64,000 nucleotides of DNA from an uncultured Actinomycetes bacterium (GTDB lineage: Bacteria > Actinomycetota > Coriobacteriia > Anaerosomatales > PHET01), in assembly GCA_947085035.1 (NCBI GenBank), contig CAMTUW010000010.1:2356-66355 (forward strand). The letters are read 5' to 3'. The notes beneath the pieces were generated by a model. The model did not search any database, was not told where the DNA came from, and saw only the letters and a program-made list of their open reading frames with translations. Both the position numbers and the translations under genes were made by a program. Of the stretch, positions 58,259 to 64,000 are shown in pieces (within the stretch, counting starts at the first letter, position 1; each line of letters opens with the position of its first letter).

Positions 58259-59215
58259 ATGACTGTCGACGTCGCCATCGATTCCCGCGCACGCCTCATC
58301 GGCTTGGGCCGCATCGCACTCGCGGGCCTGATCTGGGGCTCGATTCCCCTCGTGTTGCGCTCGGCCGACGGCGCATCGGTCGTCAAGGTGTTCTTCCGAG
58401 TCTTCTTCGCGTGGCTCGTCATCGGCGGATGGATGCTCGCCCAGGGTGGATGGCGAGAAGTACTCGGGCTGACGCGCGCCAAGTTCTTGCAGGTCGTCGG
58501 GCAGGGCCTCATCCTCACGCTCAACTGGTTCCTCTTCCTGACCGCCCTCGACATGACCACGGTGGCCACAGCCGCGTTGCTCGCCTACACGGGCCCCGTC
58601 TTCGTAGCGGCCCTCGCCTTCTACGTGACCGGTGAGCGGTTCGACCGCCGCATCGTGCCACCTCTGGCGCTCGCCGTTCTGGGAATCGTCGTCGTCTTGG
58701 CGCCGCACGGACTCGATGTTGGGAGCCGTCGCGAGCTCATCGGCGCGGTACTCGCGTTTTGCTCCGCACTGACGTACGCGGTACTGCTTCTGCGCTCCAA
58801 GAAGATATTGCGCGGCATCTCGAGCGGTGCGCTCATGTTCGTCGAGTACGCGACCGCATCGATCGTGCTCACCCCGTTCGTCGTCGCGGCGTATCTGCGT
58901 GGCGACGTGCCCAGCTCGCCCGGGGCGTATGCGGCGCTCGTCTCGCTCGGCGTGATCCACACCGCGTTCGCTGGCTTCCTCTTCCTGGGCGGCCTGCGAC
59001 GGGTGCGCACCGATCACGCCGCGATTCTGACCTACGTCGAGCCGATCGCCGCGATCCTCATGGCGGCGGCCTTCCTCTCGGAGGCGCTCTCGTGGACGAC
59101 GATGGTCGGCGGCGCGCTGGTCATCGGCGGCGGGGTGCTCGTCGCCCGCATGGATTCGCGAGATGGTGTCGAGACCGTGCCGCTCGAAGCCGCCGGAAGC
59201 GAGGAGCAGCGGTGA
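58259..59215 (+). CDS. EamA/DMT-family transporter
   Basis: 318 aa with about 10 TM helices in two EamA-like halves (LIWGSIPLVLR..; ..LGVIHTAFAGFLFLGGL). Confidence 0.75.
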   Translation: MTVDVAIDSRARLIGLGRIALAGLIWGSIPLVLRSADGASVVKVFFRVFFAWLVIGGWMLAQGGWREVLGLTRAKFLQVVGQGLILTLNWFLFLTALDMTTVATAALLAYTGPVFVAALAFYVTGERFDRRIVPPLALAVLGIVVVLAPHGLDVGSRRELIGAVLAFCSALTYAVLLLRSKKILRGISSGALMFVEYATASIVLTPFVVAAYLRGDVPSSPGAYAALVSLGVIHTAFAGFLFLGGLRRVRTDHAAILTYVEPIAAILMAAAFLSEALSWTTMVGGALVIGGGVLVARMDSRDGVETVPLEAAGSEEQR

Positions 59216-59282
59216 TGTCATCGTTCGGGAATACACTTCGGGTACGACGACACAGGAAGCTCGCCTGACGAGAGGTGCGAGG

Positions 59283-60890
59283 ATGACGCATCCCCGATTC
59301 GCTTTCGCCGATGACGCCGTCACGCGCATCGCAGCGCGTGACGGTTCGCTGTTCGCCGACGACCCCCTGGTGGCTGCCGACGTCGCCGCGTTCATGGGCT
59401 GGACCGACCTCGCCGAACAGGCCGCCAGCGTGCTGCCCGCCATCGAGCAACTCGTCGGCGAGGTGCGTGCCGAAGGGCTCACCGACGTGGTGTTGCTCGG
59501 CATGGGCGGCTCCTCGCTTGCAACGCTCGTCATGGGAGCGATTCTTCCCGGCGATGGCCCGCGACTGCACGTGCTCGACACGACCTCGCCTGTCACGGTC
59601 GCGCGAGCGCTCGCAGCGACGGATCCCGCGACCACGATTCACCTCGTGTCCAGCAAGTCCGGTGGCACGATCGAGCCCAACGCGTTGTACGCGATCTTTC
59701 GCGCGCGGGCCGACGAGTCGCTGGGCCGCGAAGCCGCCGGACAGCGCTTCATCGCGATCACGGATCCCGGATCGGCGCTCGAGCGGCTGGCCGCCCACGA
59801 GGGGATGCGCGCCTGCGTGCTCGCGCCGCCCGCTGTCGGAGGCCGCTACTCAGCCCTCACCGTGTTCGGACTGGTGCCGACGGGGCTTCTCGGCGTCGAT
59901 GTGCGGCGGCTCGTGGAGAGCGCACTCGAGGTCGAACGCAGGTTCACGCAAGGACCGGGAGACACCGATCTCGCCGACTTCATCGCGACAGCTCACGCGC
60001 GCGGCATCGACAAGCTCTCCATCGTCGCGCCACCCGAGCTGCACGTGTTCGGCCTGTGGATCGAACAGTTGGTCGCCGAATCGCTGGGCAAGATGGGTCG
60101 CGGAATCGTGCCTGTCATCGAGACCCGCACGCTCGATACCGTGCGAGGAGACCAGGCGATCGTGGTGCTCGAGCGCGCTGGCGATGCGCCCGCGGTGCTT
60201 GGCTGTGCACCCGAGACGCCACTGCTGACGATGACGCTGACGGATCCACACGATATCGGTGGCTGGTTCGTGCTGTGGGAGTACTCGGTCGCGCTGGTCG
60301 GCCTCGCGCTGGGAGTGAATCCTTTCGACCAGCCCAACGTCGCCGAGGCCAAGGCCGCGACGAACGCGGTGCTGGAAGGTTCGATCGACGCCGAGGCGCC
60401 CCATGCTGTGACCGACGGGGTCCGCCTGATGTTCGGCGGAGGACTCGAACCGCCCCCACAGCCTCAGCTCGACCTCCGAGTCGCTGTGAGACACGCGCTT
60501 CAAGCGCTGAGACCCGGCGATTACCTGGTGCTTCTCGCCTACCTGCCCGACGATGAGGCGATCCTCGCGCCGTTGCGTGACGCCATGGCTCTCGCGGGAC
60601 GTGACGCAGGGGTGTCAGCCTGTTTCGAGCTGGGGCCGCGCTACCTGCACTCGACCGGACAGCTGCACAAGGGCGGTCCGAACACCGGCGTCTTCGTGAT
60701 GGTGACCACGCGAGACGCGACAGACATAGAGATCCCGGGGTGGCCCTTCGGTCTGCGCGCGCTTCACGCGGCACAGGCCGAAGGAGACCTCACCGCACTC
60801 ATGGCACACGGGCGACGGGTGTTGCGGCTCGATCTCCCGGACGCAAGCCCCGTATCGATCGCCGCCGTGGTTGCCGCGCTGCACGACTGA
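59283..60890 (+). CDS. pgi: glucose-6-phosphate isomerase family protein (SIS domains; the type found in Tal-Pgi fusions)
   Basis: Trimmed to the ATG at 59283. Motifs: DVVLLGMGGSSLA, VSSKSGGTIEP, GGRYSALT and a PGI-like C-terminus. Confidence 0.7.
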   Translation: MTHPRFAFADDAVTRIAARDGSLFADDPLVAADVAAFMGWTDLAEQAASVLPAIEQLVGEVRAEGLTDVVLLGMGGSSLATLVMGAILPGDGPRLHVLDTTSPVTVARALAATDPATTIHLVSSKSGGTIEPNALYAIFRARADESLGREAAGQRFIAITDPGSALERLAAHEGMRACVLAPPAVGGRYSALTVFGLVPTGLLGVDVRRLVESALEVERRFTQGPGDTDLADFIATAHARGIDKLSIVAPPELHVFGLWIEQLVAESLGKMGRGIVPVIETRTLDTVRGDQAIVVLERAGDAPAVLGCAPETPLLTMTLTDPHDIGGWFVLWEYSVALVGLALGVNPFDQPNVAEAKAATNAVLEGSIDAEAPHAVTDGVRLMFGGGLEPPPQPQLDLRVAVRHALQALRPGDYLVLLAYLPDDEAILAPLRDAMALAGRDAGVSACFELGPRYLHSTGQLHKGGPNTGVFVMVTTRDATDIEIPGWPFGLRALHAAQAEGDLTALMAHGRRVLRLDLPDASPVSIAAVVAALHD

Positions 60891-60912
60891 ACTTCGTGAG
60901 CGGACTTGCATA

Positions 60913-60952
60913 CATAAGGACATTCAGATATGCTCATATATATTCCTTCATG
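60913..60952. promoter_or_regulatory. nested inverted repeat in the AT-rich arsR upstream region (candidate ArsR-type operator/promoter)
   Basis: CATAAGGA-cattcag-ATATG-CT-CATAT-atat-TCCTTCATG. The inner repeat is a perfect 5-2-5 palindrome (60928..60939); the outer arms are imperfect. It ends about 27 nt before the arsR ATG. Confidence 0.4.
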
Positions 60953-60978
60953 TGAGCCAGCGTGGCCGGAGGCGCACC

Positions 60979-61314
60979 ATGAACGATGAGTTCTTCTGCA
61001 TGCACTCTGAGCTCTGCAAGACACTCGCTAACGACAAGCGTCAGATGATCATGAGTGCCCTGCGCGAAGGCGAGCGGACCGTCTCTGATCTCGTCGAGAT
61101 GACCGGACTCACGCAGTCGAACCTCTCGCAACACCTTGCACGCATGCGCGCGAACCATGTCGTGTGTGCGCGCCGCTCTGGGGTCAACATCCACTACTCG
61201 ATCGCGAATCCGAAACTCATACAGGCATTCGACCTCATCACCGAGGTCATGCAAGAAGCCATGGACGAACGCGCGAATGCGGTCGAACCGCGTAAGGAGG
61301 AGGATGCGTCATGA
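60979..61314 (+). CDS. ArsR/SmtB-family transcriptional regulator
   Basis: Trimmed to the ATG at 60979 (GGAGG upstream). 111 aa. Motifs: ELCKTLANDKRQMIMSAL and VSDLVEMTGLTQSNLSQHLARMR (wHTH). Cys at positions 7, 13 and 63. Confidence 0.85.
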   Translation: MNDEFFCMHSELCKTLANDKRQMIMSALREGERTVSDLVEMTGLTQSNLSQHLARMRANHVVCARRSGVNIHYSIANPKLIQAFDLITEVMQEAMDERANAVEPRKEEDAS

Positions 61315-61844
61315 CAGACGTCTCTGCACAGATGAACCAGGTGGCGGCGGTCGCCGAAGCCACAGGCTCCGCACCGAAGAAACTCACGCTGGTGGTGATG
61401 AGCGGCGACATGGACAAGCTCTTCGGCGCCTTCATCATCGCCACAGGTGCCGCTGCGATGGGCTTTGACGTGGTCATGTTCTTCACCTTCTGGGGATTGC
61501 GCGCCCTGAAGCGCGCGGATGCCAGAACAGGCAAGACGTTCTTCGGTCGCATGCTCGGCATGATGTACGGCGGGGGCATCGAGAAGGCCAACCCTTCCAA
61601 GTTCAGCTTCGGGGGTATGGGCCGCTGGATGTTCGGCAAGATGATGGGCTCTCACAACGTGGCCACGCTGGTGGAACTGCGCGATCTCGCGGTGGCGCTC
61701 AACGTGCGCATGTACGGCTGCCAGATGTCGATGGATGTCATGGAGATACCACAGGACACGTTCGTGAAGGGTGTGCGGGAGCCCGTGGGCGTCGGCTTCA
61801 TGCTCGCCGAGGCGGAGACGTCCAAGGTCCAGCTCTTCATCTAG
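61311..61844 (+). CDS. DsrE2-like (DsrE/DsrF/DrsH-like family) sulfur-relay protein
   Basis: 177 aa. ATGA overlap with the arsR stop. Motifs: KKLTLVVMSGDMDKLFGAFIIATGAAAMG..VMFFTFWGL and a conserved Cys in VRMYGCQMSMD. Confidence 0.7.
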   Translation: MTDVSAQMNQVAAVAEATGSAPKKLTLVVMSGDMDKLFGAFIIATGAAAMGFDVVMFFTFWGLRALKRADARTGKTFFGRMLGMMYGGGIEKANPSKFSFGGMGRWMFGKMMGSHNVATLVELRDLAVALNVRMYGCQMSMDVMEIPQDTFVKGVREPVGVGFMLAEAETSKVQLFI

Positions 61845-61876
61845 ACACGATCAAGCCGAGAAGAAGGAGAATCACC

Positions 61877-62116
61877 ATGAGCGATCTCACCCCCGATCTG
61901 GAGCTGGACCTACGCGGGTTGCTGTGCCCGATGCCGATGGTCAAGGTGTCCCAGAACATCAACAACGTGCCCGTAGGTGGAGTCATACGCGCCATCGCGA
62001 CCGACGCAGGCGCCATGGCCGACATCCCGGCCTGGGCGAAGTCGACAGGTAACGATGTCCTCCAGGCAGAGAAGGTCGAGGGCGAGTACGTCTTCTTAGT
62101 CAAGCGCGTGAAGTAG
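61877..62116 (+). CDS. tusA: TusA/SirA-family sulfurtransferase
   Basis: 79 aa. AAGGAG upstream. Canonical LDLRGLLCPMPMVK motif. Confidence 0.88.
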   Translation: MSDLTPDLELDLRGLLCPMPMVKVSQNINNVPVGGVIRAIATDAGAMADIPAWAKSTGNDVLQAEKVEGEYVFLVKRVK

Positions 62117-62123
62117 GCTGGAG

Positions 62124-62846
62124 ATGGACACCTTCTCCTTCATCGCGTCCGCGCTTCTGGTATACGTCGCGCTCACCGTCTTCACGCTGGGCATGGCGTG
62201 GCGTGTGTGGCAGTGGACACGCACGCCAAAGTCGCCCGTTCGTCTGGCGATGTATCCGAAGCCGAAGAGTGGCGCCGGGCGCCTGGCGAAGCTGCTCAAA
62301 GACACCTTCGTCGCCCCGCAGAGTTTCGCGATCGCGCCCGGCGTCATGATCGCCGCGATGGCGTTTCATCTGGCCGCACTGGCCGCGTTCGTTGGTCACT
62401 TGCGGCTCGTGCGCGAGTTCACGCCTCTTGTCGCGCTCTGGGGCGACGCGGGCATGGCCCGGTTCGCCGCATGGTCCGGCGGCACCGCTGGTCTCGTGAT
62501 GATGCTCGCCACGTTCTACTGGATCGGACGGCGCACCTTCGGCCCGTATCGCAAGCTCTCGACTCCCGAGGACTACCTACTACTCTTCTTGCTCCTCGGC
62601 GTCATCCTCATGGGCAACCACATGCGCTTCGTCGGTCACATACCGGGGCCGGTCTACATCGAGTGGTTCCAAAGCGTGCTCGCCTTCCGGCCAGCGTTTC
62701 CACCGGAACTCGCAAACTCGAACACCAGATGGGTGCTTGACGCACACATGCTCTTCGTCAACGCGCTCTTGATCTACTTTCCGTTCAGCAAGCTCACGCA
62801 CGCGATCGGCGCGTTCGCGACGAACCTCGTCAGGACGGGTGAATAG
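62124..62846 (+). CDS. NarI-fold membrane cytochrome b subunit, DsrM/HdrE/HmeC-like
   Basis: 240 aa with about 5-6 TM helices and conserved His in TM helices (MAFHLAALAAFVGHLRL; GNHMRFVGH). It sits immediately upstream of a DsrK/HdrD-like gene. Confidence 0.65.
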   Translation: MDTFSFIASALLVYVALTVFTLGMAWRVWQWTRTPKSPVRLAMYPKPKSGAGRLAKLLKDTFVAPQSFAIAPGVMIAAMAFHLAALAAFVGHLRLVREFTPLVALWGDAGMARFAAWSGGTAGLVMMLATFYWIGRRTFGPYRKLSTPEDYLLLFLLLGVILMGNHMRFVGHIPGPVYIEWFQSVLAFRPAFPPELANSNTRWVLDAHMLFVNALLIYFPFSKLTHAIGAFATNLVRTGE

Positions 62847-62849
62847 GCC

Positions 62850-64000
62850 ATGGAGCAGACGACCATCGACACGATCGTCGGCGTGCTTGACAAGCGCATG
62901 AACCGCCAGCTCAAGCAGTACATGGATATCTGCGTGCGCTGCGCGATCTGCAAAGACGCGTGCCACCAGTACGTAGCCACACAGGACATGCGCTACCTGC
63001 CCGCCCACAGAGCAGAGCTCGTGAGGGGAATCTACCGCAAGTACTTCACGAAGGCCGGCCGGTTTCTCCCGGCGCTCTATGAAGCACGCGAGCCGGGCGA
63101 GAACCTCTTGGACGAGCTCTACGATTCGACCTACGCGTGCACAGGCTGTCGACGCTGCATGTACTACTGCCCGTTCTCGATCGACACGCAGTGGGTCGTC
63201 TCCGCGGCCAAAGGCATCCTGCTGGCGGCAGGACGCGGTAATGAGATGCTGGGGCAGCTGGCTGATGCCGCGCTTTTCAAGGGCGACAACGCCGAGATGT
63301 TCAAAGAACCGCTCACCGCTGGCTTTCGTGACATCGAAGCCGAGGTGCGCGATCTCACGGGTAACCCGAACGCAGAGATCCCGCTTGATCGAGAAGGCGC
63401 GGACATACTCTATGTCGCGCTGGCCGGCTCGCACTCGATTCTGCCCGCAGCGGTCATCTTCAACGAGGCCGGAGCCAGCTGGACCCTCTCATTCTTCGAA
63501 TCGGCCAACTACGGCTACTTCCTCGGGGACCCGGAAAAGGCTCGGCTCATCGCCAAGCGCTTCATGGATGAGGCGCTGCGTCTGGGCGTCAAGGAGGTCG
63601 TGATCACCGAGTGCGGACATGCCTACCGCGTCGCCGAGATGTTCTACGAGGCCTGGGCGAAGGAGAAGATGCCGTTCAAGGTGCGCCACATCCTCGACGT
63701 GATAGATGAGTACATCAAAGACGGCCGCATCACGGTCGATCAGGCGGCGATCAGGGAGCGCGTCACGTACCACGACCCTTGCCAGATCGGTCGCAACGGA
63801 GGCATCTACGAGCAACCGCGCGCCATCGTCTCGGCGATCTCTGAGAACTTCGTCGACATGACACCGAACCGCGAGAAGCAATGGTGCTGCGGCGGCGGTG
63901 GCGGCATCGTCGCGATGGAGGAGTTCAACAAGATGCGCTTGGCGAGCGGGGCCGAGAAGGTGCGGCAGATCAAAGAGACCGGCGCAAGCGTGCTCGCTTG
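62850..64000 (+). CDS. DsrK/HdrD-like Fe-S oxidoreductase with CCG domains (C-terminus cut by window edge)
   Basis: Absent from the ORF track because it runs off the right edge. My translation from the ATG at 62850: MEQTTIDTIVG..CVRCAICKDACH..CTGCRRCMYYCP..ITECGHAY..YHDPCQIGR..KQWCCGGGGG. That gives two 4Fe-4S motifs plus CCG-type cysteine motifs. Confidence 0.8.
   Translation, partial: MEQTTIDTIVGVLDKRMNRQLKQYMDICVRCAICKDACHQYVATQDMRYLPAHRAELVRGIYRKYFTKAGRFLPALYEAREPGENLLDELYDSTYACTGCRRCMYYCPFSIDTQWVVSAAKGILLAAGRGNEMLGQLADAALFKGDNAEMFKEPLTAGFRDIEAEVRDLTGNPNAEIPLDREGADILYVALAGSHSILPAAVIFNEAGASWTLSFFESANYGYFLGDPEKARLIAKRFMDEALRLGVKEVVITECGHAYRVAEMFYEAWAKEKMPFKVRHILDVIDEYIKDGRITVDQAAIRERVTYHDPCQIGRNGGIYEQPRAIVSAISENFVDMTPNREKQWCCGGGGGIVAMEEFNKMRLASGAEKVRQIKETGASVLA

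Follow-up and report, generated by a model that had tools for sequence, protein, structure and literature searches.

What is a membrane redox pair of the DsrM and DsrK type doing beside two sulfur-carrier genes in an anaerobe that encodes neither DsrC nor DsrAB? This question is raised by a stretch of 64,000 nucleotides (the window; positions 2356-66355 of contig CAMTUW010000010.1, hereafter C10) from a 2.05 Mb, 99% complete assembly of an uncultured subsurface member of the Coriobacteriia, order Anaerosomatales. Close to the end of the window, open reading frame (ORF) listing and hidden Markov model (HMM) scans placed five co-directional genes on the plus strand at 60979-64000, in the order arsR, dsrE2-like, tusA, DsrM/NarI-like and DsrK-like, and because this order recurs in about 60 other genomes it is not a matter of chance. 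As set out below, the cassette is independent of DsrC, and TusA is predicted to dock on its DsrK-like subunit. With about even chances of being right, we propose that the cassette is an autoregulated, stand-alone membrane redox module in which membrane electrons (menaquinol in the host) would reduce sulfane sulfur bound to TusA and the DsrE2-like protein to sulfide. The features of the locus are the following.

60917..60944, plus strand: promoter-like site AGGACA-16-TATATT, from the promoter scan
60920-60939, inside the promoter-like site: operator-like 20-bp pseudo-palindrome ACATTCAGATATGCTCATAT
60979..61314, plus strand: arsR, 111-aa ArsR/SmtB-family winged-helix repressor (HTH_5 7e-13; NF033788 72 bits)
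61311..61844, plus strand: dsrE2-like gene, 177-aa single-cysteine DsrE-family sulfur carrier (DrsE_2, PF13686, 3.8e-41, 141 bits)
61877..62116, plus strand: tusA, 79-aa TusA-family sulfur carrier with Cys17 in LCPMP (PF01206 1e-21, 77 bits)
62124..62846, plus strand: gene for a DsrM/NarI-like membrane cytochrome b, 240 aa, dihaem type (Nitrate_red_gam, PF02665, 2.6e-15)
62850..64000 and continuing past the window end, plus strand: gene for a DsrK-like CCG iron-sulfur protein (CCG 1.4e-18; Fer4_8 1.2e-9; NF045796 290 bits)

The ORF listing confirmed that the arsR stop overlaps the dsrE2-like start as ATGA, and AAGGAGGAGG precedes the latter ATG. The arsR start at ATG 60979 has GGAGG upstream and is the same in relatives; a start at TTG 60871 was rejected as an over-extension. 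Once the contig was extended (locus L002), the DsrK-like gene was found to be complete at 430 aa (L002 3206-4498), with its stop 142 nt beyond the window end. It is followed by a spacer of about 150 nt with a separate promoter-like site and then by nrdD and nrdG; the operon is therefore limited to five genes and ends before nrdDG. An earlier reading made from the letters alone (the sequence-only reading), in which an ArsR-controlled sulfur relay feeds a membrane heterodisulfide-reductase-like complex, had left room for a canonical dsr operon beyond position 64000, and none lies there. No terminator was seen after the DsrK-like gene by simple scan. A 101-aa ORF overlapping the DsrK-like stop was considered as a sixth gene and set aside as a high-GC artefact, having no Pfam match and no counterpart in other loci.

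The survey of DsrK-like relatives, with one genome per species followed by tblastn of all five proteins, gave 71 loci, and the order arsR-dsrE2-tusA-dsrM-dsrK is kept in essentially every locus long enough to show it, in about 60 genomes from four lineages. DsrK identity to the window protein is 70-86% in uncultured Coriobacteriia, 55-61% in Dehalococcoidia and about 55% in Humimicrobium-like Actinomycetota, and a single Desulfobacterales metagenome-assembled genome (MAG) carries the cassette at 55% DsrK identity and without arsR. Among 301 Coriobacteriia genomes sampled, 68 carry the cassette, all of them in the host's own order, against none of 153 in other orders; within the order its presence is patchy (3/19 in the host's family, 36/44 in a sister family), and in Dehalococcoidia a match was found in 6 of 251 genomes. 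No conserved neighbours were found: pilus and CheR genes flank the cassette in one Coriobacteriia clade, the surroundings elsewhere are heterogeneous, and the flanking genes are clade-dependent and bear no relation to sulfur. The Desulfobacterales MAG (CP070746; loci L086, L087 and L059) holds two diverged copies, with 55% and 47% DsrK identity to the window, besides a true dsrMK, and one copy adjoins a group II intron reverse transcriptase and a DUF6538 integrase-like gene. Because the flanks are unrelated or clade-specific and this copy stands beside an intron and an integrase-like gene, the cassette appears to be self-contained and sometimes horizontally transferred. In two Humimicrobium-like loci a single-domain rhodanese gene lies convergent and directly after dsrK (L061:8271-8600 and L060:8283-8615); the upstream side of L060 showed no arsR and no dsrE2/tusA.

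The HMM scans bore out the identities first proposed for TusA with its CPMP motif, for the NarI-fold membrane subunit and for the DsrK/HdrD-like protein, and the motifs CVRCAICKDAC, CTGCRRCMYYCP, HDPCQIGR and WCCGGGGG were all found in the translation of the last. In the DsrM-like protein His82, His92, His208 and His226 align with His56, His66, His187 and His205 of Escherichia coli NarI and are invariant (64/64), being the four haem-ligand histidines (helices 2 and 5) of a NarI-type dihaem cytochrome b. The DsrK-like protein has two [4Fe-4S] ferredoxin motifs (C28/31/34/38 and C97/100/103/107) and a complete second CCG motif (C311-X34-C346C347-X38-C386xxC389); its first CCG domain is degenerate but keeps E254-C255-G256-H257, and all the cluster cysteines and the ECGH motif are invariant in 43-60 relatives. 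DsrK is distinguished from HdrD by a single noncubane cluster and a strictly conserved GECGH cysteine, proposed to be catalytic (Barbosa et al., PMC10861901), and the layout described there, i.e. two ferredoxin motifs, one complete CCG motif and the ECGH cysteine, is that of the DsrK-like protein. The AlphaFold2 model of this protein (predicted local distance difference test, pLDDT, 84.7) is matched best by Mycobacterium smegmatis EtfD (9OJN; Foldseek E 4.9e-13, TMq 0.71), then by LutA and HdrB.

Despite this layout and a kinship with the final enzyme of sulfate respiration, the cassette is not part of a canonical Dsr system. No match to DsrC (PF04358) was found in the 99%-complete host genome, and DsrC is absent from 44 of the 45 other carriers, the exception being a Desulfobacterales sulfate reducer; DsrC is therefore not the substrate of the DsrMK-like enzyme. 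The genome search for dsrC and dsrAB returned neither, and the only NIR_SIR gene of the host encodes a 295-aa ferredoxin-type assimilatory sulfite reductase in a cysPTWA-cysH-cysDN operon, which fits the earlier description of the host as apparently non-sulfate-reducing. A canonical Dsr pathway was accordingly rejected for want of DsrC and DsrAB. Run against the DsrK model, the true DsrK of the Desulfobacterales genome (G038) reaches 731 bits, the cassette copy 280 bits; the window protein is 30% identical to the former and 55% to the latter, and on these sequence comparisons the DsrK-like protein is a paralogue distinct from true DsrK. An ordinary DsrMK serving DsrC and DsrAB encoded elsewhere in the genome, for dissimilatory sulfite reduction, would explain why the best NCBIfam matches are the DsrK and DsrM models and why the ECGH motif and single CCG cluster are as in DsrK. 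This explanation is hardly credible and already contradicted, given the absence of DsrC from host and carriers, the assimilatory type of the sole NIR_SIR gene within the cys operon, the scores below both equivalog cut-offs (290 bits against 400 for DsrK, NF045796; 74 bits against 300 for DsrM, NF038037), and the low identity to a true DsrK that exists as a separate paralogue where one genome holds both.

Comparison with characterised relatives places the pair more closely. With DsrMK acting on DsrC (PMC10861901) it shares a NarI-type dihaem cytochrome b, a cytoplasmic protein with two [4Fe-4S] clusters, one complete CCG motif (noncubane cluster) with the ECGH cysteine of a degenerate CCG domain, and a small cysteine-bearing sulfur-carrier protein as presumed substrate. 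It differs in that the carriers here are TusA and the single-cysteine DsrE2-like protein, both always co-encoded, in having its own ArsR-type repressor, and in a host without DsrC, DsrAB and DsrJOP. The DsrM-like protein is also smaller, with 240 aa against a 320-position NCBIfam DsrM model and a 385-aa DsrM ORF adjoining the true DsrK of the Desulfobacterales genome. EtfD (Rv0338c/MSMEG_0690; 9OJN; PMC13083937) has the same wire of haem b, two [4Fe-4S] clusters and CCG from a cytoplasmic partner to the membrane quinone, but it is made as one fused chain in which a single haem is present and both CCG domains are occupied, it passes electrons of the electron-transfer flavoprotein into menaquinone, and it has no TusA/DsrE link. 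Archaeal HdrDE, likewise, connects such a wire to a quinone or phenazine pool but reduces CoM-S-S-CoB and lacks any TusA/DsrE link.

Both carriers retain the residues that a sulfur relay would need. TusA scores 77 bits against a gathering threshold of 28.6 (PF01206), has the C17-P-M-P motif and falls below the E. coli-type TusA equivalog (42 bits, cut-off 78), with a weak match to the YedF selenium-metabolism model (34 bits, cut-off 79). The DsrE2-like protein, the sole DrsE_2 gene product of the host genome, scores 79 bits against a cut-off of 210 on the DsrE2 equivalog NF047629, and its nearest structures are 3PNX and 2QS7. Its Cys137, in the motif YGCQMSMD, is the active-site candidate. The sequence-only reading would have fallen had the active-site cysteines been lost on alignment; instead, Cys137 and TusA Cys17 are both invariant in 59/59 relatives. 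DsrE2A has two strictly conserved cysteines (PMC4175335), and since only one is conserved here the protein is not DsrE2A; it resembles DsrE2B. The relay clusters rhd-tusA-dsrE2 of Allochromatium vinosum and dsrE3A-dsrE2B-tusA of Metallosphaera cuprina (PMC4175335) are alike in their adjacent TusA and DsrE2-type pair, in the active-site cysteines and in genetic linkage to an Hdr/Dsr-type CCG enzyme. Those clusters, however, feed a soluble sHdr (HdrABC-like, lipoate-dependent) or rDsr in sulfur oxidisers, whereas here a membrane DsrMK-like pair is found in strict anaerobes, and rhodanese, DsrE3, LbpA and Hdr genes are unlinked.

The possible association of TusA with the DsrK-like subunit was examined by complex prediction from purpose-made alignments, with three controls. 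The interface score ipSAE was 0.84, 0.84 and 0.85 for DsrK-like plus TusA and 0.00 for the best of the three controls, thus passing a mark which, in calibration, was reached by 58/80 solved complexes and 2/110 mismatched pairs. The runs had at least 94% of contacts in common, with a partner pLDDT of at least 88. Searches by sequence and by fold turned up no solved complex of DsrK or of TusA with Hdr, so this result is unlikely to reproduce a known structure. On the TusA side the predicted interface comprises the active-site loop 16-19 and the invariant helix 43-57, and on the DsrK-like side helices 133-162, residues 191-195, 217 and 219 (the positions of the lost CCG-1 cysteines) and residues 355, 357 and 391, which flank CCG-2. 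TusA is thus predicted to dock on the CCG region of the DsrK-like subunit, a surface which by homology would correspond to where HdrB-type enzymes bind their disulfide. The second TusA of the host, from the cysteine operon, shares only 26% identity with that of the cassette and has other residues at the interface positions. Strict synteny, the absence of DsrC from 44 of the 45 other carriers and this prediction together support the earlier proposal that the carriers feed the DsrMK-like pair.

The regulator belongs to the ArsR/SmtB family (NF033788, 72 bits, over the cut-off of 55; HTH_5 7e-13). Its nearest solved relatives are Rv0081 and SqrR, and its best Protein Data Bank sequence matches include SqrR (4e-11) and BigR; on the NCBIfam BigR model it reaches 50 bits against a cut-off of 155. 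Cys7, Cys13 and Cys63, listed in the sequence-only reading, are present in the translation; Cys13 (helix 1) is invariant in 49/49, Cys7 and His9 (as Cys7-x-His9-x3-Cys13) are limited to Coriobacteriia, and Cys63 is not conserved. Persulfide sensing in the manner of BigR/SqrR, which that reading had offered as a speculation, was not supported, the position of SqrR Cys41 being Ser26 and the C-terminal Cys being absent. The likeness to SqrR, BigR, sHdrR and SoxR is that of the same winged-helix family with a repressor heading a sulfur-handling operon; the SqrR sensing pair Cys41 and Cys107 is missing, and the sole invariant Cys is Cys13. A canonical ArsR/SmtB metal site was not found in the repressor alignment, where helix 3 lacks the CVC motif and helix 5 lacks the His/Asp/Glu set. 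The literature on 'TsoR', after which a weakly matching NCBIfam regulator model is named, offered nothing of relevance.

ArsR control of the operon, on the other hand, is supported by a conserved operator-like palindrome within the promoter. The promoter scan gave 3 sites against 0.6 expected in shuffles, and the window palindrome sits between the hexamers of the promoter-like site, as is typical where an ArsR repressor controls its own expression. A palindrome family with the consensus ACATTCGCATATTCGAATGT precedes arsR in 47 loci; its best match has on average 3.7 mismatches, whereas random segments of these loci give 9.9. The consensus or close variants occur in most Coriobacteriia loci, and AT-rich variants in other lineages.

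Gene identities, synteny, DsrC independence, catalytic motifs, operator conservation and the docking prediction being the computational results, we infer the substrate chemistry, direction of electron flow, inducer and physiological role as follows. The DsrM-like dihaem cytochrome b would exchange electrons with the membrane pool, which in the host would be menaquinol because futalosine-pathway genes are present, and electrons would pass to the two DsrK-like [4Fe-4S] clusters and on to the single noncubane CCG cluster and the adjacent ECGH cysteine. TusA would be the protein substrate replacing DsrC, presenting Cys17 to the CCG site, and the single-cysteine DsrE2-like protein may act as loader or second thiol. 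The most likely reaction would convert carrier-bound sulfane sulfur to free thiol(s) and sulfide, candidate substrates being TusA that carries a persulfide or polysulfide, or TusA and DsrE2 joined by a mixed bridge (TusA-S(n)-DsrE2) comparable to the trisulfide of DsrC. In a strict anaerobe this would likely serve to clear reactive sulfane sulfur and might also conserve energy, and the ArsR-type repressor would bind the 20-bp promoter palindrome and respond probably via the invariant Cys13. The reductive direction is favoured because of the analogy to DsrMK, of the repressor-controlled, cassette-like character of the locus, and of the fact that persulfide dioxygenases, which depend on oxygen, are not an option for anaerobes. 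DsrMKJOP itself is a menadiol:DsrC-trisulfide oxidoreductase from which sulfide is released (PMC10861901).

Several points weigh against this reductive scheme. Persulfide reduction by quinol is thermodynamically unfavourable at standard potentials. EtfD delivers the electrons of a cytoplasmic protein to menaquinone (PMC13083937), and because this closest solved structure runs the opposite way the architecture by itself leaves the direction unfixed. The DsrE2B of M. cuprina was unreactive with all sulfur compounds tested and its TusA reacted with tetrathionate only (PMC4175335), and the repressor lacks the persulfide-sensing Cys pair known from SqrR. As to the electron pool, MqnC was found in 30 of the 58 carriers tested and MenA in 13 more; the 15 with neither over the cut-off include all 7 Dehalococcoidia and two Coriobacteriia genomes 98-100% complete, and cultured members of OPB41/Anaerosomatales have no detectable quinones (PMC9686372). 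For these two reasons the quinol link is not general. It is plausible in the host, judging from its futalosine-pathway menaquinone genes (MqnC 472 bits, a SCO4490-type decarboxylase 525 bits, a PF02621 MqnA/D-family gene, an MqnP-like gene and UbiX). Within the order, MqnC was found in 30/49 carriers and 10/15 non-carriers, i.e. with no apparent link to the cassette. In the carriers without MqnC and MenA (G114, G118, G140, G194, G232, G234, G238, G242, G031-G033, G035-G037 and G042) the haem histidines of the DsrM-like protein are still invariant.

Of the other explanations, electron flow in the opposite direction, in which carrier thiols, or sulfide and TusA-SH, would be oxidised to a TusA persulfide or a TusA-DsrE2 (poly)sulfide bridge with electrons passed to menaquinone, is unlikely, though it comes nearest to the reductive scheme. 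It would yield oxygen-independent activated sulfane sulfur for biosynthesis, or a sulfide-oxidising respiratory input. The transfer from thiol/sulfide couples to menaquinone is thermodynamically downhill, the TusA docking is compatible with both directions, EtfD takes electrons from a cytoplasmic protein to menaquinone over the same haem b/Fe-S/CCG wire, and DsrMKJOP is thought to be reversed in sulfur oxidisers (PMC10504309). The hosts, however, are strict anaerobes in which a high-potential acceptor chain is not evident in what was examined, and if sulfane sulfur both releases the repressor and is the product of the operon a positive feedback would arise. The 15 of 58 carriers missing MqnC and MenA speak against this direction too, and so does the separate TusA in the host's cysteine-biosynthesis operon.

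More doubtful still is a route over thiosulfonate carriers, in which tetrathionate would give Cys-S-thiosulfonates on TusA and DsrE that are cleaved reductively by the DsrMK-like pair, in cytoplasmic tetrathionate/thiosulfate reduction or detoxification. In M. cuprina tetrathionate was the sole compound with which TusA and DsrE3A reacted, and their genes adjoin an Hdr-like complex (PMC4175335), and Anaerosoma tenue, a cultured OPB41/Anaerosomatales member, respires thiosulfate and sulfur (PMC9686372). Yet the DsrE protein here is of the single-Cys, DsrE2B-like kind that was unreactive in the former study, no tetrathionate- or thiosulfate-handling genes are linked in the flanks examined, and the thiosulfate respiration of A. 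tenue was assigned to a molybdoenzyme (PMC9686372). A module outside sulfur metabolism, with TusA and DsrE2 serving another chalcogen or metalloid (e.g. in selenotrisulfide reduction) or general thiol-disulfide exchange and ArsR sensing a metalloid, is the most improbable of these three. The weak YedF match, the metalloregulator family of the repressor and the N-terminal Cys7-x-His9-x3-Cys13 of Coriobacteriia would point to it, but the YedF score is far under its cut-off, the canonical metal site is absent, Cys7 and His9 are lost outside Coriobacteriia with the remaining module unchanged, and no selenium, arsenic or tellurium genes are linked.

Other genes of the host were noted besides the cassette. 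About 5-16 kb past the window end, on the minus strand (L002:9512-19995), lies the assimilatory sulfate operon with cysPTWA, cysH, cysD, cysN and the 295-aa sulfite reductase, followed by the second TusA (L002 11971-12207, LCPLN), a JAB/Mec protease, a CysO-like 71-aa protein ending in GGGDV, cysM and thiF/moeZ; the placement of a TusA between sulfite reductase and the CysO pathway is unusual, and linkage of this operon to the cassette was not seen in relatives. On another contig, a molybdopterin oxidoreductase gene (G000:C9:53710-54978), whose 937-aa open frame contains a single in-frame TGA, probably encodes a selenocysteine-containing, formate-dehydrogenase-type enzyme, and a second molybdoenzyme is found at C9:38163-39290. 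Just past the window end, nrdD (L002:4649-6906; 683 aa, with ATP-cone) lacks its last ~30 residues, the missing C-terminal part (positions 531-562 of 562 of the NRDD model) being encoded in another frame (L002 5722-6906); the break, near L002 6700, comes from a frameshift or from faulty assembly. Upstream of arsR, at window 59163-60890, a 575-aa protein of the phosphoglucose isomerase (PGI) family resembles the C-terminal half of a bifunctional transaldolase/phosphoglucose isomerase (413 bits, where the cut-off is 712).

Literature searches on the combinations DsrE2/TusA/DsrMK and TusA/DsrE/HdrD found no description of this cassette, the nearest published remark being that the Chloroflexi with basal DsrM sequences lack DsrAB (PMC10504309). 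The cassette might be close to an ancestral form from which the DsrC-dependent DsrMK was recruited. It is possible, if doubtful, that TusA and the single-cysteine DsrE2 are a two-protein stand-in for DsrC, which would make the cassette an autonomous, horizontally mobile, oxygen-independent carrier-persulfide/trisulfide reductase and, if true, a new way for anaerobes to respire or detoxify sulfane sulfur. DsrMK-type genes in genomes and metagenomes are taken as markers of dissimilatory sulfite reduction, and the cassette described here is a widespread DsrMK paralogue working without DsrAB and DsrC and, on the docking prediction, wired to the universal sulfur carrier TusA. Should the proposed function be confirmed, matches to 'dsrMK' would need a different interpretation, and the cassette would account for an oxygen-independent handling of reactive sulfane sulfur in subsurface anaerobes such as OPB41-type Coriobacteriia, Dehalococcoidia and others.

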